From Anaerolineae bacterium (GTDB taxonomy: Bacteria > Chloroflexota > Anaerolineae > B4-G1 > SLSP01): a DNA stretch of 64,000 nt. Where the stretch lies: the NCBI GenBank assembly GCA_025454475.1, contig JALOOJ010000001.1:6015-70014 (forward strand). Direction: 5' to 3'. Below are positions 2,493-43,614 of the stretch, in pieces. The translations under genes and the position numbers were made by a program. The notes beneath the pieces are model-generated. The model was not told the origin of the DNA. It was given only the letters and a program-made list of their open reading frames with translations, and ran no database searches. Positions within the stretch are counted from its first letter, which is position 1, and each line of letters begins with the position of its first letter.

Positions 2493-4298
2493 TCAACCCA
2501 GACTGTGCGCGCCTGTCCGTACATAGTTAACGCAGAAGACCGCAGGCATTGCTGGCTCATCGGCGTGGGGTAAGTCCGCGCCTTCGAACCGGTTGGTGTC
2601 CAACGTAGGCTCGCGCCTTCGTGGCCCCGTGCGGAAGACAAGCCGCTCCACGGTGCGGACCGGCATCGCCAGCGCCCCACCTTCGATGAGCGGTCGATCG
2701 TCCAGCTCCAGATCGAACTGGTGAATCCCCGCGTCGATCCTCACCCGAACCTTGAGCCAAGCGCGGGGTCGGTAGATACCCGCGCTCACAAGGTGTCCCC
2801 CTTCCTTGACCCTGATGATCCCATCGGCGTCCAACACGATCAGGACGGCCAACCGACCTCCGCCGTCCACGACCTCGACCTGGAGCTGCCCGACGCCGGT
2901 ATGGCGCGCGGTCACCTTGAACTCGATGGTCACCCGCGCACTCTCCGGGAAGACCCGCTCAGCCTTGGCATAGTCGTAGGGGTCGTAGTCTCTGAGCTCG
3001 AGACTTCGGTTGTCCGCGCTGGGGAAGGCAATGACGGACACCGGCGCCCATCGCGGGCTGTAGATGTTCCAGTTCGGGATCAGGCCGCCGGGTTCCACTT
3101 CGTTGAACGTGTCGTCGACGGGTTCGTCCACGGCCCACCTGACGGGCACCGGGATGCGGCTGACCCATATGTCTTCCTTATTCATGCTATAGGCCACCCA
3201 TAGGCCCTCATCCGGTGGCAGCCCATTGCCCTCCGCGATCCCGCGCACGTAGTTCTGTCCAAAGTCCTTGTAGGTGCCGATGTACCGGCGGGGCGGAACC
3301 TCGCCGCAGACGCAGAGCAGATTGTCGAAGGCGACTCCATCCTCCCCGCTGACGAGCGCCAGGGGCCACCGATGACTGCCGTCCGGGTTGGGGTTGTAGA
3401 CCAAAGCGTAGGCGCCATCGGACGTGCGCTGGCCCCAGATCTTGGCGCCGCTCATCACCAGCGACGGAACATCCCCCGTGGTCCAGCTCGCGCCCTCGTC
3501 GGCGCTGATCCCGGCCCTGGAGAACTTCCACAGGCCAATCACGCGCCCATCGGGTAGATGGTAATAGGATAGCGCCTTGCCGCCCTCCACCGCATAGAAC
3601 CCGTCGGAGCTGCGATCCTCCTCCCACCACTGAAGCGTCATCAGTTTGTCTGCCAGCAGGGCGTCACACGCTGCTACGAAACCAGCATCCCCCGATGTCT
3701 GGTAGAACGGAAAGGGCGTGTTCATCTCATCCCAGCCGGCGTGACGGTTATAACGCAGGAAGTAGATCGGGCCAAAGCTATCACCGGCGCGCACCTCGCG
3801 CACCACACGGCCTAAGCCCATGCCGTCATTAGGCCCGCCGAGCGTTACGGGGGCACACCCGTAGAAGCCCAGCACGAGCAGTCGACCATCCGGCGCACCA
3901 TAGAACCCCATCCGCTGGTGCATCACCGCCTGGCTGTACGGCGGGAGCGGGTAGCCCTGGTAGACGCCCTCCGGCACATCGATGACCGGGAATACGACCT
4001 CCGGCTTTCCCCAGTGCAGGCCGTCTGCGGACGTGGTCAGCAGCGTGTGCCCAGGCGGCACGTGCTCCCCGATTGGGTTGCTCAGGTACTCCAGGTAGAA
4101 CCGCCCATTCCAGTAGGCCAACATGGGCGCGTGGTTATAGGTCCATCCGAAGCCATCCGCGCGGTCCGGGTGGGAGCGGTTGGCGCGCAAGACCTGGTAG
4201 GAGTGCACACCCACCGCAGGCCGAAGCTGACCGTCGTGATAGTCGGTGTTCGCGGTCTCGGTGCCGAGATAGCGCACAATCTGCGATGAAAGATCCAT
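2493..4298 (-). CDS. hypothetical protein, sialidase/BNR-like beta-propeller plus C-terminal ConA-like domain (possible glycoside hydrolase), no signal peptide
   Basis: 601-aa ORF starting at MDLSSQ (ATG at 4296-4298, strong GGAGGAGG RBS) rather than the track start. The propeller-like sequence impression (WTYNHAPMLAYWNGRFYLEY, repeated G/W-rich blades) is weak; I cannot assign a family. Confidence 0.5.
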   Translation of the reverse strand: MDLSSQIVRYLGTETANTDYHDGQLRPAVGVHSYQVLRANRSHPDRADGFGWTYNHAPMLAYWNGRFYLEYLSNPIGEHVPPGHTLLTTSADGLHWGKPEVVFPVIDVPEGVYQGYPLPPYSQAVMHQRMGFYGAPDGRLLVLGFYGCAPVTLGGPNDGMGLGRVVREVRAGDSFGPIYFLRYNRHAGWDEMNTPFPFYQTSGDAGFVAACDALLADKLMTLQWWEEDRSSDGFYAVEGGKALSYYHLPDGRVIGLWKFSRAGISADEGASWTTGDVPSLVMSGAKIWGQRTSDGAYALVYNPNPDGSHRWPLALVSGEDGVAFDNLLCVCGEVPPRRYIGTYKDFGQNYVRGIAEGNGLPPDEGLWVAYSMNKEDIWVSRIPVPVRWAVDEPVDDTFNEVEPGGLIPNWNIYSPRWAPVSVIAFPSADNRSLELRDYDPYDYAKAERVFPESARVTIEFKVTARHTGVGQLQVEVVDGGGRLAVLIVLDADGIIRVKEGGHLVSAGIYRPRAWLKVRVRIDAGIHQFDLELDDRPLIEGGALAMPVRTVERLVFRTGPRRREPTLDTNRFEGADLPHADEPAMPAVFCVNYVRTGAHSLG

Positions 4299-4651
4299 GG
4301 ATTCCTCCTCCCCATAGGCCTTGTCGAAACGGGACAACACCAGACGAGGTCGCGATCCCGCAAGCGGATCGACCCGAGCGACACTAACTATTGTATACGA
4401 GATCACTTTGGCCACAGAGCGCCCCGCCCCGCGCCCCTTGCGAAGGTCCGGAGAACTGCGGAGGACTGACTGCACCGTTACAGAATCCCGCTGATCGGAA
4501 GAGGATAAGCTAAGACCAGCTTGCCCACGTCGCCCAGAGCCGATGGCAGCAGAGGCTTGACCACTTTCGTCACGAAGCTACTGTCAATGTACTGATCCGA
4601 AGGGCCTCCGTTCTTGTCTTCATACCCGGCGAACGACCGGTCGCCGGCCCC

Positions 4652-6823: not shown

Positions 6824-9800
6824 ATGCGCAAGATGATGGTTGTGTTTCTCTCCCTGTTCGGACTACTGGTCCTGAGTGCGGCGCTGCGAGCAGCGGAAGC
6901 AACGCCGCAGCCCGCTGCACCGCGCGACGCTGATCCGGCGCCTCCGGCTGAGGCACTGGACCTGTCGGCTAGCATCGTCGTCTCGGGCACCGTCTTCGGG
7001 CCTGGCGGGGGCGTCCCCAATGTCAGCATCCGGATTTCATCAGGTGTCGGCCCGCAGACAAAGATCACGGATGCCAACGGTTTCTACAGCGCCACCGTTC
7101 TCTCCGGCTTAATCGAGTTCGAGGTCCGACCTCCCCTCGTCACCCGCCTGAGCCAGATCAACACGGCCAGCGACGGCGCGCAGAGCGATTTCACCCAGAA
7201 CTTCACGGTGACTGCGGGCAGCCTGCTCAGCATGGTACCCGTGGGGACAGGCGGAGAGCCAATCACCGATACCGTCCTGCTGCGCGTGTGGCCCCTGCAA
7301 GCTGAGTTGACGGGGCTCACGTGGTATGAGATGGACTGGCAGGCCGCTTCTCAGCGGTTCGAGGCCGTGTTGCCGCAGGACGTGACCTACCTCAAGATCG
7401 CCCGGGTGCCCGAGGGCTACTATACGACCTTCGTGCCGGTGGATCTGCGCAGCGGCGATGTCACAGTGAACATCCCGCTCAACACCCACTATGTGCCCAT
7501 GCCGCCTGTTGACCCGCCCGATGCATCGAAGATCACGTTCGGCCCCCCCGATGAGCTGGGCGAGGTGACGGTGACGGGCGGACCCGGTGCGGTGATGCCA
7601 CTGGCACGGGTCTTTCTCAACAACCTGAACAGCATGCACCAGGCCTATGCCGTTTCGGGAGCCGACGGCAGCTTTACGGCCCGCATCTGGGCTCCGCCGG
7701 GTTCCAACATCCTCATCAAGCATGGCCCCAGCGGCTACTCCGCCGCGCCGGACGAAAGCTGGCCCGGTCTGAGCAATGGCCTGCCGGGGGGCAAAGTCAC
7801 CGTGCTTCCGGGCACGATCCTATTTGTGCCGTTTGACGTTCCCGCAGCGCCGGGGGACTTGCCCTTCGCGACGGCAGGCGCCGCTCAAAAGCACCTCGAT
7901 CTGGCCGCGGAGACGCGGGACTACGTCGGTGCGGCTTGGACGTTGACGGGGGTGGTGCATCCCCTGGGCAACGGCAGCTATGCGCTTAGCAGCACGCTGC
8001 GTCTCTATAGCCACGCACTCACGCTAAGCACCGATCTCGGCGCGATTCACACCCCAGGGTCTTTGAGCGTGTTGATGCAGCACAACGCTGATGGCCAACC
8101 TTTGGCCCACAAGAACCGCTTCGTGTCCACACTCCTCTCACCCACCGGGCTGCCCATCGAGACGGCAGCCCTGCCTACGCTGCAGTGGGGTGTTCCCGTG
8201 GACGGTATGAGCTGGCGCCACGTGAGTGAGCACGTCATCGAGGGCGACCTGGGCTGCACCTTTGTGATCAGTGACGACCTGCCAGGCATCTACCGTCCGC
8301 GTATCCAGTTCGCGGCGTTCGAGTCGGGTATGAGCGGGGTCCCGACCGACACGACCTGGCTGGCCTCCGAGGTCGAGACCTTTCAGAGCGCGCCTGACCA
8401 GGCGCTCCTACCCCCCATCGCCATCGGGGAGGTGGCGCGGCCGCGGCTGATCTGGCACCTGCTGACCAACACGTGGGTGCAGGGGCAGCGTGGCATCGGC
8501 GCCATCGGGGACCGCGATACCTTCGGGCTGGTCACTGAGATTGTCACCCAGGGGGATGTCTTCATCGTGCCGCCCGTGGAGGAGGTCACGGGGGAGCCCA
8601 TCACGTACCGGTTGGAGCCCTTCCTGCCCATGATCTCGTACGCGGATAGGGCACAGCCCGGGCCGCCGTATATCCCGTTCGAGCTGCCGGGCGGCGAGCT
8701 CCACGTCGTCGTCCGGAGGCCCGATGGGCAAGTGGTGGACCTCGGAACGGAACCCTTCGCCCAGTCTCTCGCGCAGACGCCCAGCACGGTCTCGGGGCAC
8801 GACGACAACCAGGGCACGCAGCAACTCGACGACGTCTACGCAGTGCGCGCGGCCTCCGAACGGTTCGCCTTCGTCTTTGAGCAGTATGGACGCTACGTCA
8901 TCACGATGACCGGCGTACTCGAGGATGTATGGGGCAACGTCTACACAGGGGGCGGCACGTACGAGGTGTGGGCAGCGCAGCCGCTGGACATTGACCCCGG
9001 CATGATGCCCGGCACACCCTTTGCGATCGGCGATGTCCTCAACCCCACCCTCCAGGTGTACCCGCGCGTCGGCGCCGAGGTGAGTCTGAGGATACGTCAG
9101 TATCAGGGATGGCAGCCCGCAGCGGTGGTCCTTGATCGCACCGTCGTGGGGACCGCAAACGCCTACGGCACCTTCACCCCCGAGATCGTGCCACCCATCA
9201 GGTTCACGGAGCCGGGCGAGTACCGCGTCGATCTGACGACAAGGTATTGGGATGAAGCCGGCAGGCTCAGGATGGGGGTGATGACATGGGGCGGCGTGGT
9301 GATGACACCACCGGCGCAGGCCGATCTGATCGCCCACGGGCGGCGCGGCTACGATGTGGGCACGTTCCCCGATATGACCTGGTTCGTGGGCCTGCGCGAC
9401 GTGGTCCTGCCCGCTGGTGTGGTGTCACACCTGCACGCGCCGTACTTCGCCGGCGACATTATCTGGAGCCGCATGGAGGATGGACTCTACGGCGACTCGC
9501 TGATCCTCAATCCGGGCCTCCAGGACACGACCGGAGGATACTGGTCCGAGCTGCTTCTGGATCGCGCCGTCCACATGCGGCTTGAGGGTATGGCGCCCAA
9601 CGACCTCCAGACGCGCGTTGATCGGGGCGAGATCCCCGTCTTCTTCAGCACAACCACGGGCAACGCCCCGCAGGTGGACCCCACCGTTCTCGATCAGGCC
9701 GCCTATGCCTATGAGTCCTCGCAGCGGCCCGGCGTGCGGGTCCGAGAGTACCTGGGCGACGATAGTCCGATAGCTTATTGGCGGCTCGACACAACCTACG

Positions 9801-14364: not shown

Positions 14365-15219
14365 ATGGTTCGGATCATTGCCGATACGACGTCGTGTGTT
14401 GCGGAGTCGTTTGCCGCGGCGCACGACATCCCGATCATTCCACAAGTCATTATCTTCGGCGACGAGTCCTTTCTCGAGGGTGTGGAGATCACCCAAGAGG
14501 TCTTTATCGAGCGACTTCGAGCTGCGACGAAGCCACCCAAAACCGCGGCGCCTCCGCCGGATCTCTTTACGGAGGCTTTCATGCGACTGGCCCCGGCGGG
14601 CGAGCCGATCCTCTGCATCCTACCCTCGTCGCTCGTAAGCGGTACCGTGCGTTCAGCCACGGTCGGGCTGCGTATGGCCCGCGAGCAGGGGCTGGACGGC
14701 CTCGACGTCCGGATCATTGACACGAAGCTCATTGCCAGCCCAGTAGCGACGCTGATCCGGCTCGCTCTACAATGGGCAAAGCAAGGCGAGCCGATCGACG
14801 TGATCGAGGCGCGCATCCTTGAGATGAGCGCGCGCTGCCGTATCTACTTCGTCGTCGATACGCTCAAGTATCTGGCCATGGGGGGACGCATCGGCGGCGC
14901 GGCGGCCTTGCTGGGCGGCGTGCTTCAGGTCAAGCCGGTCCTCACCTTCATCGAGGGTCAGGTGGAGACCTTCGAGAAGGTGCGCACGCACCAGCGCGCG
15001 ATCGAGCGGTTGAGGCAAGTCGTCCTCGAGCAAATCGGTCCGGGCGATCGGGGATACCTCCAGGTGATGCACGCTGATGCTCTGGAAGAAGCAGAGGAGC
15101 TCGCTGCCTTTTTCTGCACACGACTAGGGCTCGCGGAGGTGCCGATTCGCAGCGCCCCGCCCGCCATCGTGACCCACGGGGGGCCGGGCGTTCTGGGTGT
15201 TGGGTTTTTCCAGGAGTGA
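14365..15219 (+). CDS. DegV-family fatty-acid-binding protein
   Basis: MVRIIADTTSCVAESFAAAHDIPIIPQVIIFGDESF N-terminus and overall DegV pattern. Confidence 0.8.
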   Translation: MVRIIADTTSCVAESFAAAHDIPIIPQVIIFGDESFLEGVEITQEVFIERLRAATKPPKTAAPPPDLFTEAFMRLAPAGEPILCILPSSLVSGTVRSATVGLRMAREQGLDGLDVRIIDTKLIASPVATLIRLALQWAKQGEPIDVIEARILEMSARCRIYFVVDTLKYLAMGGRIGGAAALLGGVLQVKPVLTFIEGQVETFEKVRTHQRAIERLRQVVLEQIGPGDRGYLQVMHADALEEAEELAAFFCTRLGLAEVPIRSAPPAIVTHGGPGVLGVGFFQE

Positions 15220-15224
15220 GTTCT

Positions 15225-16343
15225 ATGAGGATCCACGAGATCGACACACGTGACTCCAATGACGTCCGCGAGTTCATCAAGGTCCCGTTCCGGCTCTACC
15301 GGGACTGCGCCCAGTGGACGCCGCCCATCGTGCCGAGCATCAAGCAGGCGCTCAACCGTCAGCGACACCCGTTCTACCACCACTCGGATGCCGGGTTCTT
15401 CGTCGCCGAGGACGAGGGGACTGCCGTGGGTCGGATCGCCGTGCTCGAGAATCGCCGCTACAACGATTACAACAAGGCCAGAACCGCCTTCTTCTATTAC
15501 TTCGACACGGTCGAGGACATCGCGGTCGTCAGGGGTCTGTTTGACGCCGCCGGCGCGTGGGCCAAGGCCCGCGGCCTGGAGATCCTCAAGGGGCCCAAGG
15601 GCATGCTGCGCGCTGACGCCTACGGCATCTTGGTCGAGGGCTTTGAGTATCCGGCAGGGATGGGCATCCCCTACAACTACCCCTACTATGGGCAGATCCT
15701 TGAGCAGATCGGCCTGGAGAAGGAGATCGACTACCTGTCGGGATACATGACGACCGAACAACAGCTCCCTGAGCGCCTGTTCCGCACGGTCGAGCGGCTC
15801 AAGGAGCGCGGCGGCTTCTGGGTCAAGTCATTCGAGTCCAAGCGCGAGCTGCAGAGCTGGATCCCCAAGATCCAGCAGATCAACAACGAGGCCTTCACGC
15901 AGGTCTGGGGCTATTACCCCATCGACGAAGAGGAAGTCCGCATGATCGGGCAGCAGATGCTGCTTGCCGCCGACCCGCGGCTGTTGAAGGTGGTGATGAA
16001 GGGCGACGACATCGCGGGCTTTGCGTTCGTCTTCCCCGATATCGCGGAAGCCCTGAAGGCCACTGGCGGGCAACTCTGGCCCTTCGGCTGGGCCAGGCTG
16101 CTGATCTCGCTGAAACGCACGAAACGGCTGTTGGCCAACGGTGTGGGGCTGCTGCCGCAGTTTCAGGGGCTTGGGGGCAGCGCGATGATGTACGTGGAGC
16201 TGCACGATATGATCCGGGCGCGCAAGGCCACCTATTGTGAGTTCGTCCAGGCGATGGAGACCAACGTCAAGAGCCTGGGCGACGCGAATATGCTGGGCGT
16301 CAACTGGCACAAGCGCCATCGGGTCTACCGCCTGCCCATCTAG
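15225..16343 (+). CDS. GNAT-like acyltransferase-fold protein (about 370 aa)
   Basis: Start at MRIHEIDTRD, overlapping the DegV stop. Weak GNAT-like core (VGRIAVLENRRYNDYN...); family assignment tentative. Confidence 0.45.
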   Translation: MRIHEIDTRDSNDVREFIKVPFRLYRDCAQWTPPIVPSIKQALNRQRHPFYHHSDAGFFVAEDEGTAVGRIAVLENRRYNDYNKARTAFFYYFDTVEDIAVVRGLFDAAGAWAKARGLEILKGPKGMLRADAYGILVEGFEYPAGMGIPYNYPYYGQILEQIGLEKEIDYLSGYMTTEQQLPERLFRTVERLKERGGFWVKSFESKRELQSWIPKIQQINNEAFTQVWGYYPIDEEEVRMIGQQMLLAADPRLLKVVMKGDDIAGFAFVFPDIAEALKATGGQLWPFGWARLLISLKRTKRLLANGVGLLPQFQGLGGSAMMYVELHDMIRARKATYCEFVQAMETNVKSLGDANMLGVNWHKRHRVYRLPI

Positions 16344-16465
16344 TTGGACGATTCCGGCTTCTGCCGACCGTGCCGCTCAGAAGCGGGGGCGATCGTAGAT
16401 GGCCTTCAGGCCACCCGCCCGCTCCGGGCGCGACTGGTCATCTTTAGAATGGAACTCACTAGCTG

Positions 16466-16553
16466 TCAGGTAGGCGGTTGCGGTTCGTAGTAACGGCTTT
16501 AGCCGTCAGAACCGCTGAAGCGGTTACTGCGAACCAGTCTACCTGAGTACTAG
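16466..16553 (+). repeat. structured palindromic intergenic repeat, copy A
   Basis: ggttcgtagtaacggctttagccgtcagaaccgctgaagcggttactgcgaaccagtctacctgagtactag; shares the core with copy B at 34088-34184 in the same orientation. Confidence 0.7.
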
Positions 16554-16598: not shown

Positions 16599-18035
16599 AT
16601 GACGCAGCAAACCGAACGGATTCCAGTTATCACCAAGATCATCTACGGCACCGGCGACTGGGGAGTGGCGTCGTTCAACACCCTGCGCCAGATCTTCTAC
16701 GCCATCTTCCTGACCGACGTGGTGGGGCTGGACCCGCGGCTGGCCTCCTTCGCCGCCTTCATCGGCGTGATCTGGGACGCGGTCAACGACCCGCTGGTCG
16801 GCGCCTGGAGCGACAAGCTGCGCAGCCGCTGGGGCCGTCGCCGTCCATTCCTGCTGCTCTTCGCGGTCCCCTATGGACTGGCCTTCCTGATCCTGTGGTG
16901 GGCGCCGCCGTGGAAGAGCCAGATCCTGCTGATGATCCATATGATGCTCGCCTACGCACTCAGCGACACCTTCCAGACGCTCGTCGTCGTACCCTTCCAC
17001 GCGCTGACGCCCGAGATGACCTCAGACTACGACGAGCGCACCTCGCTGGCGAGCTATCGCATGTTCTTCAACTTCCTGGCCTCGCTGGCTGCAGGCGTTG
17101 TCGCCCCCATGATCGTCGATGCGACGCTGGCGGGCGGCGGGACGCAGCAACAGGGGTACCTGGTGGCCTCCGCGATCTTCGGTGCCACATCGGTGGTCCC
17201 CTACCTGCTCATCTTCTTCGCGGTGCGCGAGAAGGTGCAGCCGGAGGATCTGCCCAAAGAGGTCTCGCTGCGGGACACGGTTCGCCAGGTCTGGGAGAAC
17301 GTGCCCTTCCGCTACGCGACCGCGATCTACATGCTGAACTGGGTGACCTTCGATCTGGTCGCCGCGGTGCTGCCTTTCTTCCTGGTCTATTGGATCGCCC
17401 AGGGCGACCTGCTGCTCAAGATGCCCCTGCTGGGCATGCCGATTGAGAGCACAGTCCTGGGCATCATGGCGATCCTGGCCGTCCCGGCTCTGCCGCTGTG
17501 GTCGTGGGCAGCGCATCGCTTCGGCAAGCGCCCGGCCTACCTGGCCGCCATTGCCTTCTGGGCGCTGATCCTGCTATCGCTGCTCTTCGTACCGCCGATG
17601 AAACTGGGGCTGGCGATGGTCATTGCCGTGCTGATGAGCTTGAGCTACTCGGCGGCGCATATGCTGCCCGAATCGATCTTCCCCGACGTCATCGACTGGG
17701 ATGAGCTGCGGACGGGCGAGCGCCACGAGGGCATCTATTACGGCGCCAAGAACTTCATCCGCAAGCTGACCACGGCGTTCGCGCTCTTTCTCACGCTGCA
17801 GGTGCTGGGATGGCTGGGGTATCAGAAGCCGCCCGACGGCGCCATTGTCTTCACACAGCCCGATGCGGTAATCACCGGCATTCGCGTCCTGGTGAGCCCG
17901 GTGGCGTCGGTGCTCCTCATCGCGCTGATGGTCGTCACCTGGTTCTATCCGCTCGACCGGCGGCGCTACGAGCGCGTGCGGCGGCTGTTGGCGCGCCGCC
18001 AGCGCCGTGACGCCCTCCGCCGTGCCTCTGCGTAG
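16599..18035 (+). CDS. MFS transporter, glycoside-pentoside-hexuronide (GPH):cation symporter family
   Basis: 12-TM profile; N-terminal IIYGTGDWGVASFNTLRQIFYAIFLTDVVGL and DPLVGAWSDKLRSRWGRRRPF typical of MelB/GPH permeases. Confidence 0.75.
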   Translation: MTQQTERIPVITKIIYGTGDWGVASFNTLRQIFYAIFLTDVVGLDPRLASFAAFIGVIWDAVNDPLVGAWSDKLRSRWGRRRPFLLLFAVPYGLAFLILWWAPPWKSQILLMIHMMLAYALSDTFQTLVVVPFHALTPEMTSDYDERTSLASYRMFFNFLASLAAGVVAPMIVDATLAGGGTQQQGYLVASAIFGATSVVPYLLIFFAVREKVQPEDLPKEVSLRDTVRQVWENVPFRYATAIYMLNWVTFDLVAAVLPFFLVYWIAQGDLLLKMPLLGMPIESTVLGIMAILAVPALPLWSWAAHRFGKRPAYLAAIAFWALILLSLLFVPPMKLGLAMVIAVLMSLSYSAAHMLPESIFPDVIDWDELRTGERHEGIYYGAKNFIRKLTTAFALFLTLQVLGWLGYQKPPDGAIVFTQPDAVITGIRVLVSPVASVLLIALMVVTWFYPLDRRRYERVRRLLARRQRRDALRRASA

Positions 18036-18312
18036 CACGAACTGCGGCCCCGCGTCTGCGCGGGCGTTCGCCCGCGACCAGGCGCCTTTCGACTCACGTG
18101 CACTGCTTCGTCGCAAAGCGCCCTCCGGCCCGTGGGCTCGCCGCGTCGCCCGGAGGCGAACGCCCGTTCCGGGTGCAGGCAAGACAGTTCGCCGTATACT
18201 TCGAACATGGGGCAACCGGTCGCTCTACACCGCAATAGCGGGATAGACATCACTTGGTGGCGCGCCGGTCGCGTGTTACACTGCCCTCACGCCAACGGGA
18301 GGGCGTCACCCT

Positions 18313-32842: not shown

Positions 32843-33022
32843 CCTCGCTCTGGCGCTGCAAGGGTCGGCCCCGCGAGCCTGCCCGCTGTCTTGGTCCCCT
32901 CCCTGAAGCCATCTTCACGCAACTCACACCTCCCCTTCATCGCTCCTTCATTGCCCACGGCTATCCTACAGCCGAGTTGAATCAATAGACACGCGCCGTT
33001 AGGCGCAGTCGGGAGGAGAGAG

Positions 33023-33361
33023 ATGAACAAAAGCATGTTGAACTACTGGCTTGATATCGTGGTTGGACTGGCGTTTGTACTTGCAGCAGTAACAGGAATC
33101 GCCTTTCTCTTTATGGGGTCGGGTGGCTATCAGGGCGGGAGAAATGCCCTCTTCCAGGTAGCTTTCCTGGGCATCGCCCGTGATACCTGGAGCGACCTCC
33201 ACACGCTAAGCAGCTTGGTCATGACAGCGGGCGTCGGTCTGCATCTGGTGTTTCACTTCAACTGGATAGTCTGCGTGACCAAGCGTATGCTGCATAGGCC
33301 AGTCAGGAAGACGATCGCCCCCGCGCTGCAGCGCGAAGAGTCTTGCCCAGTTACAGCATAG
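33023..33361 (+). CDS. small membrane protein, DUF4405-like
   Basis: Two TM helices; GGAGGAGAG RBS. Confidence 0.4.
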   Translation: MNKSMLNYWLDIVVGLAFVLAAVTGIAFLFMGSGGYQGGRNALFQVAFLGIARDTWSDLHTLSSLVMTAGVGLHLVFHFNWIVCVTKRMLHRPVRKTIAPALQREESCPVTA

Positions 33362-33390
33362 TCACAGCGTTTATAGAAGGAGAAGGAGTG

Positions 33391-34065
33391 ATGTTACAGA
33401 CGTTGAAGGTCGGCTTGATCGTTAGCTTGCTGGTTGTTCTCGTGGGTGGTACCGTCGCCATTCTGGCCCGGCCCTCGGAGGCACGCGCGGACCAGACGGG
33501 TCGTACCCTTACCTCGGCACTCGGGTCCACGGTGGCCCATGGTGGGCGTCAAGGAGCGGGCGTAGGCATCGAGGGTGGTGGGTTGGACACCACAGGACAG
33601 GGACGCGGCGGATGGAGCACCACGAATAACGGCGCCGAGACCTATGGCGGTGGGCTGGGAAATGGTCGCGGCGTGGGTAGCAGCACGCAGGGCACGGCAG
33701 ATGACACCTCCGCATACGCCTATGGTCAAGGGCAGGGACGCAGTGCAGGGGGCGTTGCCGCCACCGAACCCGACCAGTGGGAGACGATCGAAGGATCGGT
33801 AGTTGTCGCGGGCAGTGACCTCACTATGCGTACCGCCGATGGCGACATCCTGGTCGGACTGGGCCAGGAGTGGTACCGTGAGCAGGAGGGATTTGTAGTA
33901 GAGCTCGGCGACCAGATCCGGGTCAAGGGATATTACGAGGATGGTGAGTTCAAGGCCGGCGCCGTCGAGAACCTCACGCGGCACACAAGCATAACGCTAC
34001 GCGATGACACCGGACGCCCGATGTGGTCCGGCAGGGGCAATCGACAGAACTCCAGCCGCCCCTAG
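33391..34065 (+). CDS. Gly-rich secreted/membrane-anchored protein of unknown function
   Basis: ATG at 33391 with GAAGGAGAAGGAG RBS (the track start is a TTG); signal anchor MLQTLKVGLIVSLLVVLVGG; Gly/Thr-rich low-complexity middle. Confidence 0.45.
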   Translation: MLQTLKVGLIVSLLVVLVGGTVAILARPSEARADQTGRTLTSALGSTVAHGGRQGAGVGIEGGGLDTTGQGRGGWSTTNNGAETYGGGLGNGRGVGSSTQGTADDTSAYAYGQGQGRSAGGVAATEPDQWETIEGSVVVAGSDLTMRTADGDILVGLGQEWYREQEGFVVELGDQIRVKGYYEDGEFKAGAVENLTRHTSITLRDDTGRPMWSGRGNRQNSSRP

Positions 34066-34087
34066 TGGTCAGTTAAGCTGATGTCTG

Positions 34088-34184
34088 GGTTCGTAGTAAC
34101 GACTTCAGTCGTTCCGCCCCAACAGACTGGGCGGTAGCAGAACCGCTGAAGCGGTTACTACGAACCATCCTACCTGAGCACTAG
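34088..34184 (+). repeat. structured palindromic intergenic repeat, copy B
   Basis: ggttcgtagtaacgacttcagtcgttccgccccaacagactgggcggtagcagaaccgctgaagcggttactacgaaccatcctacctgagcactag; same core and orientation as copy A. Confidence 0.7.
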
Positions 34185-34193
34185 TCTCTCTCC

Positions 34194-34234
34194 AGAAAAA
34201 AAGGCGGGGCAGTGGCTGAACGCCACTGCCCCGC
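34194..34234 (-). terminator. rho-independent terminator for the GDT1-family gene
   Basis: On the minus strand gcggggcagtggc-gttca-gccactgccccgcc is followed by a run of seven U. Confidence 0.8.
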
Positions 34235-34276
34235 AGAGGTCCCAGGAACCGGTTCGCTGACCTTACCTTGATCAGG

Positions 34277-38690: not shown

Positions 38691-39805
38691 TGCTCCCCCG
38701 AGTGCCCGATGGTGCCCAGTTCGGGCGAGTGGCCTGAAGGGCATCTTCGATCGCCTCCGCTTCCGAGCGGCCCGCTTCCGAGCGGCCCGGTCCCGCGCAA
38801 GCCCGGCACAAGCAGGCCCAGAAAGGCAATGCCCACGCGAAGGTCGAACGCCGGCGGGGAGAGCCGCGGGTAGGGCGAGTAGTCGTGCGCCAGGACCAGA
38901 AGGGGGATCACCGCAAGGACGCTCAGAACGGCGACGGCGCTATCGATGCCGGCCCAGACAGGTCGGCGATAGCGCGTGTACCGCACCTGGCTACCCACAC
39001 GCCACACTACCCACGCGGTCGCTAGCGATCCGGCAAGCAGCAGAGGCAACGACACGGCGCTCCCCTGAGGCAGCAACCGCATGACGCCGCCCGCAAGCAC
39101 ACACAGGAGCCCTCCCGTCAGGACGAGCTGGGAGACCACCGTTCTGCCGCCGTTTCGCTTGCTCGCCTGCTCGCCGGATTCGTCGCTGGCGAAGCCACGC
39201 GCGGTCATCGCTTCAGCCAACTGCAGCGCCCGCTCCAGCCCACCGATCAATACCGGCATGAACAGCGGCAACCAGTCGCGCAGGCCGCGCATACGATACC
39301 CACGGATGGCCTGCGCCTCGCGCACCTGCTGAAACTGGCGCAGGCTGCTCGGCACGAAGGTCGCGGCGATGGCCGAGACGACGGCGATGGGATAGAACGC
39401 CCGCGGCAGATACGCGATGAGGTCTCGCACCGGAACCGCCAGTGTGAGCACGGCAAACGCGCTGAAGAGCGTCGCCAGGATCAGGCCATTGATAGCCCCG
39501 TAGACCAACGACTCAACCGTCAGCGGCCCACCAATCAAGGGAATAGCATCGGGGAGGCGCAGGAAAACGGCCTCGCCGACATGACTGGTGAGGACGTTGA
39601 AGAGGGCGCCCGCGGGAACGGCAAATAACCCGAATCGCACAGGCGAGACGAAGGCGGGGAGTGGACCCTGAGGAAGCTGCCCGCGCACTGCGTCCGCAAC
39701 GACGCACGTGACCGCGAAATCAATGACCAGATACAGCGGGTTGCGGGTCGCGAGAGGCACCAGCGCCGCCGCAGCGATCCACAGGAACCACGCCAGGGGA
39801 TGCAT
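38675..39805 (-). CDS. ECF transporter transmembrane (T) component, CbiQ/EcfT family, with C-terminal extension
   Basis: EAMTARGF coupling motif typical of EcfT; the tail contains a GPLGSGPLGSG duplication caused by a 17-bp tandem DNA repeat. Confidence 0.7.
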   Translation of the reverse strand: MHPLAWFLWIAAAALVPLATRNPLYLVIDFAVTCVVADAVRGQLPQGPLPAFVSPVRFGLFAVPAGALFNVLTSHVGEAVFLRLPDAIPLIGGPLTVESLVYGAINGLILATLFSAFAVLTLAVPVRDLIAYLPRAFYPIAVVSAIAATFVPSSLRQFQQVREAQAIRGYRMRGLRDWLPLFMPVLIGGLERALQLAEAMTARGFASDESGEQASKRNGGRTVVSQLVLTGGLLCVLAGGVMRLLPQGSAVSLPLLLAGSLATAWVVWRVGSQVRYTRYRRPVWAGIDSAVAVLSVLAVIPLLVLAHDYSPYPRLSPPAFDLRVGIAFLGLLVPGLRGTGPLGSGPLGSGGDRRCPSGHSPELGTIGHSGEQHDHV

Positions 39806-43111: not shown

Positions 43112-43614
43112 GCGCATCGACCTTTCGGGTCCTTCGGGATGCTCGTCACATCCGCGCATCGTGGGTACCGCGTACGGCCAGAAGTAGGCAGGTGCTCTCC
43201 GCGTGGGACGACCGCTTCCGAGCGGCTCTATCTTGCCTGCGCCCGGAACGGGCGCTCACCCGCGGCAAGGTGACGAGCGCATAGCCAGGCATACTGCGTC
43301 GGCAGGCACTCTCTGCGCGGGGCGAACCTGAAGCTCGCCCCCCGGCAGCCGAGTACTGACGCTATGCGGAGAAGACACTCCTACCGGATGGGCGACATGC
43401 AACGTCGCCCTACTGCAGCGGGGAGCGCGCACGGTTGTGCAGAATGGGAATGGACACCCGGGCGTTCGCATCCGCTGAAGCGCCGCCGTCCTGGCGGCCA
43501 TCACCTCGATTGTGGCATGCGAGTACGCAGGCTTTGGCGCAAGCCGGAGGCCTGACCACTTGGCCGGTTAGCGTTATCGCCTAGACTAAAGACATCACCC
43601 GTCAAGGAGGGCTT

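Follow-up and report, generated by a model that had tools for sequence, protein, structure and literature searches.

Do two structured palindromes in the genome of an Anaerolineae bacterium mark an RNA gene, or are they copies of a mobile DNA repeat? The question arises in a 64-kb stretch of this genome (64,000 nucleotides, hereafter the window), which carries the palindromes at 16459-16553 (copy A, 95 nt) and 34062-34184 (copy B, 123 nt). The initial annotation had recognised both copies and their common orientation but had drawn their limits too tightly: outer inverted arms, with CTAG at both outer ends, extend each of them. It had taken the helix-preserving differences between the copies as a sign of function at the RNA level rather than of a repetitive extragenic palindrome (REP), and had named a mobile palindrome, of the REP kind or of the kind known as miniature inverted-repeat transposable elements (MITEs), as the alternative. 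The alternative holds in its REP version, given multi-copy populations in two orientations and transposase genes flanked by the same modules. With a probability of about 0.85, the copies are tail-to-tail doublets of GTAG-tagged REPs, resembling REP doublets forming hairpins (REPINs) and bacterial interspersed mosaic elements (BIMEs), in a Chloroflexota-wide family served by a REP-associated tyrosine transposase (RAYT) of ∼198 amino acids (aa), an HUH/Y1 enzyme. Most probably, copies A and B are repeat DNA of an ordinary kind, selfish or domesticated, and no new RNA gene.

Each copy is an inverted pair of 21-nt modules, in which GTAG-T is followed by a 6-bp hairpin with a 4-nt loop (AAC-NNN, loop, NNN-GTT). 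The left module, on the plus strand, is of type ‘Y’ (AACGRC/GYCGTT, that is GGC/GCC or GAC/GTC), and the right module, on the minus strand, is of type ‘Z’ (AACCGC/GCGGTT). The GTAG heads point outwards in both copies, and outer arms of ∼16 nt enclose each module pair. In copy A, the left arm CTAGCTGTCAGGTAGG (16459-16474, plus strand) pairs imperfectly with 16539-16553, with three mismatches to the reverse complement of the right arm CTACCTGAGTACTAG (16539-16553, plus strand). Between the arms lie a Y module (16487-16507, plus strand; head GTAGT, hairpin AACGGC-TTTA-GCCGTC) and a Z module (16510-16530, minus strand; GCAGT followed by AACCGC-TTCA-GCGGTT, with GGTTCGCAGTAAC at 16523-16535 on the minus strand). 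The second head, GCAG for GTAG, and the mismatched outer arms are signs of decay. Copy B opens with the left arm CTAGTGGTCAGTTAAG and an unpaired bulge CTGATGTCTG (34062-34087, plus strand), followed by a Y module (34093-34113, plus strand; GTAGT and AACGAC-TTCA-GTCGTT), a linker with a hairpin of its own, CCGCCC...GGGCGG (34114-34140, plus strand), a Z module (34141-34161, minus strand; GTAGT and AACCGC-TTCA-GCGGTT) and the right arm CCTACCTGAGCACTAG (34169-34184, plus strand). The spacer between Y and Z is thus 2 nt in copy A and 27 nt in copy B. The longer spacer had been described as a 24-nt hairpin insertion; the extra segment and its hairpin are there, but the segment measures ∼25 nt and is not private to copy B, being a shortened form of a 43-nt family linker.

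Within the window, this architecture is confined to the two copies. The 13-mer GGTTCGTAGTAAC, allowing up to two mismatches, occurs four times, only as the arms of copies A and B, and none of 100 dinucleotide-preserving shuffles contained at least four occurrences. The same restriction to copies A and B applies to the second hairpin AACCGCTGAAGCGGTT and to the 3' tail CTACCTGAGYACTAG, and a repeat search finds a 53-nt 3' half common to both at 89% identity. The module count is four, as two doublets. Beyond the copies, GTAG-headed hairpins do not exceed chance: eight were counted, three of them in copy B, against 2.6 per shuffle.

The stability of the palindromes speaks for a structured non-coding RNA or cis-regulatory RNA, a small RNA or an untranslated-region element whose helices would be kept since the transcript must fold. 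On the plus and minus strands, respectively, RNA folding gives -54.0 and -45.1 kcal/mol for copy A and -55.3 and -59.5 kcal/mol for copy B, with z-scores of -5.5 to -6.7. The plus-strand folds are highly stable (z ∼ -6), but the minus strands fold about equally well, and DNA folding parameters give z-scores much like the RNA ones. The minimum-free-energy fold of copy A is a single long rod in which the two inner hairpins are not favoured. The rod was rejected as the conserved fold from a comparison of 33 distinct doublets, each cut to a 52-column core (26 nt on each side, spacer removed), in which pairs were counted for two models. Under the single-rod model, 29 of the 33 doublets leave pairs 14-39 and 23-30 open, and 13 leave pair 15-38 open. 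Under the local-hairpin model, 92% of cells are paired, with 92.9% in the first hairpin and 99.0% in the second, which is fixed by the 20-mer search pattern in the loci that came from the exact genome scan described below. Since the local-hairpin model pairs where the single rod leaves pairs open, the two inner hairpins are the conserved structures, as had been proposed from the two copies.

The compensatory G:C to A:T change in the inner hairpin, also noted at first reading, recurs across the family: pair 15-22 is GC in 18 doublets, AU in 15 and unpaired in none, a split that may stem from few events, many of the 33 rows being related copies. Elsewhere in the hairpins, pair 30-39 is CG in 29 and GC in four, and pair 31-38 is GC in 31 and AU in two. 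The outer stem shows no covariation. Its pair 5-48 is CG in 15, UG in eight, UA in two and C.A in eight doublets, and therefore the two heads vary independently; because the wobble and C.A counts are symmetric, at eight each, there is no preferred folding strand. In the outer arms, covariation is absent or decaying. G6, T7 and G9 of the head do not vary, and conservation of A8 is at least 90%.

An RNA reading also draws on the compensatory change in the first hairpin, on one T.G pair in the copy A stem that is tolerated on the plus strand only, and on the position of both window copies 3' of plus-strand open reading frames (ORFs) in the same orientation. Across the family this orientation dissolves: relative to the upstream gene, the Y-to-Z direction is the same in six cases and opposite in five (by crude gene calls), and the gene neighbourhoods are unrelated. 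Rfam 15, which includes Chloroflexi motifs, gives no match to the element at the gathering threshold, and relaxing the limit to E ≤ 10 adds nothing but chance, miRNA-like rod matches far under gathering scores. Neither copy has promoter-like or terminator-like signals of its own, and in particular neither contains an intrinsic terminator, understood as a G+C-rich hairpin followed by a T-run; the sole terminator-like site near the copies (34234-34204, minus strand) belongs to the GDT1 gene and adjoins copy B. Single, tandem and reversed-order modules fit no one RNA structure, and the element is missing at both sites in close relatives. The step from covariation to an RNA-level function is thus unsupported, the covariation being confined to the two 6-bp hairpins, and an RNA gene or regulatory RNA is very improbable here. 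The G:C to A:T change is the subfamily covariation expected of REP hairpins and lends no specific support to an RNA gene.

The family extends well beyond the window. An exact scan with the core 20-mer GAACCGCTGAAGCGGTTACT over 185,579 species genomes (596 Gb), in which ∼1 chance match is expected, returned 40 loci (L001-L040), nearly all in Chloroflexota metagenome-assembled genomes (MAGs) from Anaerolineae, ‘Chloroflexia’, Ardenticatenaceae and Ca. Leptovillus. Single MAGs hold at least 5-8 exact matches, on both strands. Aligned flanks and a module scan show the modules in relatives as singles, tandem arrays (L012, L020, L034), tail-to-tail doublets and head-to-head doublets (L023, L035, L032, L037), and L001 contains a mosaic REP cluster with a recurrent linker. 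Doublet spacers range from 1 to 48 nt, owing to the modular linker. BLASTN of the window against the loci gives matches at the elements only, never in the flanks, and L001 and L029 have in common a 151-nt element, 94.7% identical, within unrelated flanks. Elements are retained at orthologous sites in the pairs L023/L035 and L011/L020. By crude gene calls, 18 contexts are tandem (co-directional), four convergent and two divergent, and six are called intragenic. Plasmid and phage collections gave no match to the element sequence.

Some of these matches lie inside apparent coding sequence. A REP doublet stands in frame within a long methyltransferase-like ORF (peptide SNRFSGLTAEAVTTNVTTN) at L011 4932-4984 and L020 2594-2655, the same position in both orthologous loci. 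In two MAGs from outside the Chloroflexota, a complete Z-type module with its head (GGAACCGCTGAAGCGGTTACTACGAAA) falls in an apparently conserved coding region (L015 3002-3023 and L022 1199-1220; peptide ...DGTAEAVTTKN/H-II..ATGG); this module could be an old intragenic REP, or the match could be due to chance or convergence.

In other genomes, the same modules flank RAYT genes. A hidden Markov model (HMM) of RAYTs, built from the alignment in the supplement of PMC3733652 and searched against six-frame ORFs of the window and the 40 loci, matched ORFs in L011, L020 and L007 only. On NCBIfam NF047646, ‘REP-associated tyrosine transposase’ (cutoff 80), the 198-aa ORFs of L011 and L020 reach 99.3 and 97.1 bits, respectively. 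Each of these genes is immediately preceded by two Y/Z doublets and followed by one, with exactly the REP sequence of the window; the two loci are orthologous, 84.8% identical over 3.7 kb, and in both the RAYT gene is located between the methyltransferase-like ORF and a helicase-like ORF. The RAYT-like gene of L007 was rejected as support: its score of 63.6 bits is below the cutoff, its flanking palindrome is different, and a GTAGTAAC doublet 350 nt upstream is incidental. L007, from Ca. Leptovillus, holds a separate repeat/transposase pair, in which the palindrome AGACCTGACAGGTTTAAGAAAACCTGTCAGGTCT flanks the gene on both sides (3860-3893, 4130-4170, 4558-4592) and a related copy lies inside the ORF itself.

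A protein database search with the L011 RAYT gave 829 homologues at E ≤ 1e-10, of ∼198 aa, from Anaerolineae, Chloroflexota, Ardenticatenaceae and some cyanobacteria. Independent loci were obtained by taking the DNA around five homologues chosen by protein alone. The RAYTs of L041 and L044/L045, 65-70% identical to that of L011, carry doublets of the GTAGTAAC family: three upstream and one downstream in L041, with the Y type GAC/GTC, and one on each side of the gene in L044 and L045. L042, L043 and the cyanobacterial L046 retain the GTTCGTAGT head with different hairpin sequences, and therefore REP and RAYT diverge together. In L046 (Oscillatoriales cyanobacterium USR001), whose RAYT is 63% identical to the Chloroflexota one, GTTCGTAGT-headed doublets occur at 1780-2000 and 2607-2660, their hairpins being AGGGGC-TTTA-GCCCCT and AGGCAC-TTTA-GTGCCT, again two types per doublet.

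A metagenome scan with a 24-sequence RAYT alignment added 80 further loci. Judged by eye, GTAG-headed hairpins flank the gene in ∼18 of the 20 closest metagenome RAYT loci. One clade, 44-46% identical to the RAYT of L011 (L056-L063, L066), is flanked by GTAGTGAC-GAC-TTCA-GTC-GTC, the same hairpin as in the Y module of copy B. Under a strict criterion of perfect stems, at least one GTAG-hairpin lies ≤250 nt from the gene in 18 of 26 RAYT loci, and the density of perfect GTAG-hairpins is 4.84 per kb within this distance versus 0.34 per kb elsewhere. Among the 24 aligned RAYTs, the HUH triad (H85-Y86-H87) and N149-P150 in the catalytic motif are invariant, and Y145 is nearly so (≥90%).

In close relatives, the sites that correspond to both window copies are without the element. 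Copy A was first described as lying in the 5' region of the GPH transporter gene; it stands instead in a 255-nt spacer between a 375-aa ORF (15216-16343) and the MFS_2/GPH gene (16599-18035), ending 46 nt before the ATG at 16599 and directly following a second, unrelated 72-nt repeat. Three relatives with GPH proteins 83-87% identical retain the gene order DegV, 372-aa gene, GPH, with spacers of 62-100 nt that contain neither the copy A element nor the 72-nt repeat. Copy B does lie between convergent genes, as had been stated, and its first CTAG supplies the TAG stop of a called ORF ending at 34065. A 1.4-kb segment at this site (DUF4405 and the 224-aa ORF) is missing in relatives, so that L133 alone is informative. 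In L133, which has a GDT1 protein with 87% identity, a gap of 36 nt separates the terminator from a 51-nt block with homology to window 34000-34050; the window equivalent of this gap is 36 nt plus the 123 nt of copy B, and L133 is without the element. Its empty site contains no CTAG, but has diverged.

The called ORF at 33343-34065 (plus strand; 224/240 aa) has no Pfam match, and its third-position GC is 0.68, versus 0.80-0.88 in its neighbours. Its final ∼60 nt are homologous to intergenic DNA of L133, and both L132 and L133 are without the entire 32843-34274 segment, except for the block homologous to this ORF end. This called ORF could be spurious; alternatively, the insertion of copy B could have reshaped its end.

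The outer arms set copies A and B apart as members of a long form, found also in L001, L005, L016, L017, L018, L024, L029, L038 and L039. Its arms have the consensus CTAGTGCTCAGTTAAG (left) and CTTAACTGAGCACTAG (right); a bulge, CTGATGTCTG(G), is added on the left side, and the two REPs are usually separated by a linker of ∼43 nt. The arm and bulge of copy B recur in L001, L005, L016, L018, L029 and L038. The linker is 43 nt long in L001, L029 and L039, shortened in copy B and missing in copy A; its sequence GCGCCCAGCAGACTGGGCGG recurs in L001, L005, L018, L029 and L039, and a second L001 copy lies inside another REP cluster. To judge from these sequences, it seems to be the whole CTAG-to-CTAG long form, and not the inner doublet alone, that is inserted, because L001 and L029 have only their 151-nt match in common and because the L133 site is empty. 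In L029 (1250-1420), the long form sits between GAGCGGGGCC and GGGCCCCGCTC, within an older palindrome that is a possible terminator stem, which hints at a preference for insertion into hairpins.

An inserted unit with arms of this kind could also be a classical MITE, in which the CTAGTGCTCAGTTAAG arm and its inverted partner serve as terminal inverted repeats for a DDE transposase (for example IS5-like, with a YTAR/CTAG target) and the REP doublet is cargo or an earlier insertion. CTAG stands at both ends in most copies and could be a duplicated CTAG or TA target, and the arms have not been seen beside RAYT genes. The initial annotation had associated a MITE with many copies in both orientations and target-site duplications: relatives do hold multiple copies on both strands, while the comparison of flanks leaves the terminal CTAG either a duplicated target or part of the element, and the empty site of L133 is without CTAG. 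Conservation runs against functional ends: within the element it is lowest in the outer arms, which are often mismatched, and highest in the REP modules, the opposite of what a MITE would show. In 575 kb of loci, arms without a REP core are absent, except for two truncated copies (L019, L027), and a search that was not exhaustive found no arm-bounded transposase ORF. Short forms have clearly spread without arms. A classical MITE is, on balance, quite improbable.

On the current view, REPINs are inherited strictly vertically and are specific to a lineage, whereas the long form is 80-95% identical across species-level genomes. A distinct composite replicator of Anaerolineae-type Chloroflexota can be conceived, in which CTAG arms and an invariable 10-nt bulge accompany a Y/Z doublet of unlike REPs and a third hairpin of modular kind; it would either move without REP heads or be a REPIN lineage spreading between species. 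This proposal is unlikely to be right; if it were, either outcome would take the REPIN/RAYT model beyond Proteobacteria.

Persistence at orthologous sites across species, together with an architecture that mirrors the BIMEs of E. coli (Y and Z subtypes alternating in orientation, recurrent linker modules such as GCGCCCAGCAGACTGGGCGG), would also suit a host-domesticated BIME-like DNA site, acting as a platform for nucleoid or topology proteins (gyrase, IHF-like, Pol I) or as the operator of a dimeric regulator. Presence or absence between close relatives speaks against an essential site-specific role. Such a site would be compatible with a RAYT origin. As an explanation in its own right, it is extremely improbable.

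The REP doublet and its RAYT are thus the preferred explanation, and several points weigh against it. The RAYT HMM finds no RAYT gene among the six-frame ORFs of the 64-kb window. Pfam Y1_Tnp is not matched at E ≤ 1e-3 by the three RAYT ORFs, and precomputed PF01797 matches are weak or absent. There are only two copies in the 64 kb, from which a high copy number in the source genome does not follow. In the examined loci, the outer CTAG arms never adjoin a RAYT gene and the RAYT-flanking doublets are of the short form, so that a RAYT acting on the long form would be extrapolated from the short one. For enzymes of this RAYT clade, the transposition of REPINs is itself presumptive. Mobilisation by a RAYT, and a RAYT gene in the source genome, are what we infer.

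By analogy with RAYT/REP systems already characterised, a route for the REP doublets can be proposed. In transiently single-stranded DNA, each 21-nt module would fold into its 6-bp hairpin and 4-nt loop. The RAYT would recognise the hairpin and the unpaired GTAG head and cut nearby, and this cleavage would permit occasional excision and copying of the doublet. Stem mutations would survive only if compensated, because the enzyme would read shape, and the outcome would be the G:C/A:T ‘covariation’. The window copies would be old, partly decayed passengers. In E. coli, REP hairpins between cistrons or 3' of genes are known to stabilise upstream mRNA. If transcribed, the hairpins of the window (∼-54 kcal/mol) could in a similar way stabilise the upstream mRNA or modulate the downstream GPH gene. 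Any such effect on the host would be a side effect, one of the possible RNA-level consequences and not the reason why the sequence exists.

Other repeats accompany the two copies. The intergenic repeat directly 5' of copy A (16369-16440, plus strand, ∼72 nt) is 81% complementary to 38703-38774, part of a site of this family at 38703-38785 (minus strand); two further sites lie at 43212-43225 and 7344-7357. It contains small hairpins (CCGCT-CRGA-AGCGG, GGCC-TTCA-GGCC, GCCCG..CGGGC), and its 14-mer CCGCTCRGAAGCGG occurs five times in the window versus 0.19 expected, with a tandem duplicate at 38757/38772. The CCGCTCRGAAGCGG repeat is rare in the other loci and missing from the orthologous spacer of the relatives. 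A pair of 38-nt inverted repeats, 84% complementary, occupies 18150-18187 and 43228-43265; one arm lies just past the GPH gene, and the other just 5' (minus strand) of a cobalamin riboswitch, beside a CCGCTCGGAAGCGG unit. This riboswitch (RF00174, 42918-43066, minus strand; 51.1 bits, E = 8e-10) is the only Rfam match of the window at the gathering threshold. Database proteins from an Anaerolineae MAG match the GPH and GDT1 proteins of the window at 100% identity, and part of the window is also contained in JGI metagenome 3300037461.

For annotation, a false lead is removed: helix-preserving changes in a repeated palindrome are no evidence of an RNA gene where the hairpin is a recognition element for a transposase acting on single-stranded DNA. 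To our knowledge, studies of REPIN biology come almost exclusively from Proteobacteria. With the family, a well-defined REP/RAYT system is documented for Anaerolineae-type Chloroflexota; it comprises heterotypic doublets (Y and Z), linkers like those of BIMEs, and a long form. The system could be of use for typing strains, for testing how REPINs persist in a further phylum and, as a mask in annotation, for avoiding false calls of small RNAs, terminators and ORF ends.

Several known systems offer a measure of what is shared and what differs. The ends of IS200/IS605 elements are similarly read by an HUH/Y1 enzyme, through subterminal hairpins on single-stranded DNA; the window elements differ in having no transposase gene, and the associated enzyme belongs to the RAYT equivalog and not to IS200 TnpA. 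E. coli BIMEs are likewise mosaics of two REP types in alternating orientation with recurrent linkers, placed between cistrons or 3' of genes, but their sequence is dissimilar, and binding of gyrase, IHF or Pol I would be conjecture for the elements described here. The REPINs of Pseudomonas (Bertels & Rainey 2011, PMC3116915) also consist of two inverted REPs that form a long hairpin around a short spacer, are non-autonomous and dependent on a RAYT in trans (a dependence that would apply here as well), and persist at orthologous sites between species. In contrast with these, the doublet described here is heterotypic (Y and Z), its spacer varies from 1 to 48 nt with a modular linker, and its replication as a doublet is inferred from few comparisons. 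The RAYT clade also differs: it is found in Chloroflexota and Cyanobacteria, a spread that would fit Group 4 of Bertels 2017, a group noted as frequent in Cyanobacteria and Caldilineae (PMC5581495), and not the REPIN-rich Groups 2 and 3.

The closest likeness is to the GTAG REPs and REPtrons (Nunvar 2010; Ton-Hoang 2012; Di Nocera 2013, PMC3733652). In these, the REP hairpin is read as single-stranded DNA by a RAYT, and a family comprises subfamilies whose stems carry alternative residues that remain complementary (PMC3733652), as is the case here. A GTAG-type REP is an imperfect palindrome of 20-40 bp with a stem of 5-13 bp, and has GTAG or a near variant at one end, beyond the hairpin, in >90% of members; the family has 21-nt modules with 6-bp stems, short 4-nt loops and an unpaired GTAG head, for which copy A has the variant GCAG. 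Singles, head-to-head dimers, tail-to-tail dimers and clusters occur in both; the usual position is between genes that are co-directional or convergent, copies within a gene and in frame being occasional, and in both the RAYT genes are flanked by the same REPs (here in L011, L020, L041 and L044/L045). GTAG REPs and RAYTs were already listed in 2013 for two Chloroflexi, C. aggregans and T. roseum (PMC3733652), whereas the hosts here are Anaerolineae-type Chloroflexota. The kind of REP is thus already known, and what may be new is the specific sequence (GTTCGTAGT-AAC-GRC/CGC...): it was not found in searchable literature text, a search outside which figures fall, including the consensus Figure 1 of PMC3733652, and its strings matched unrelated oligonucleotides only. 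The window copies differ further from known GTAG REPs in adding outer arms of ∼16 nt that end in CTAG, and it is this long form that may go beyond the routine.

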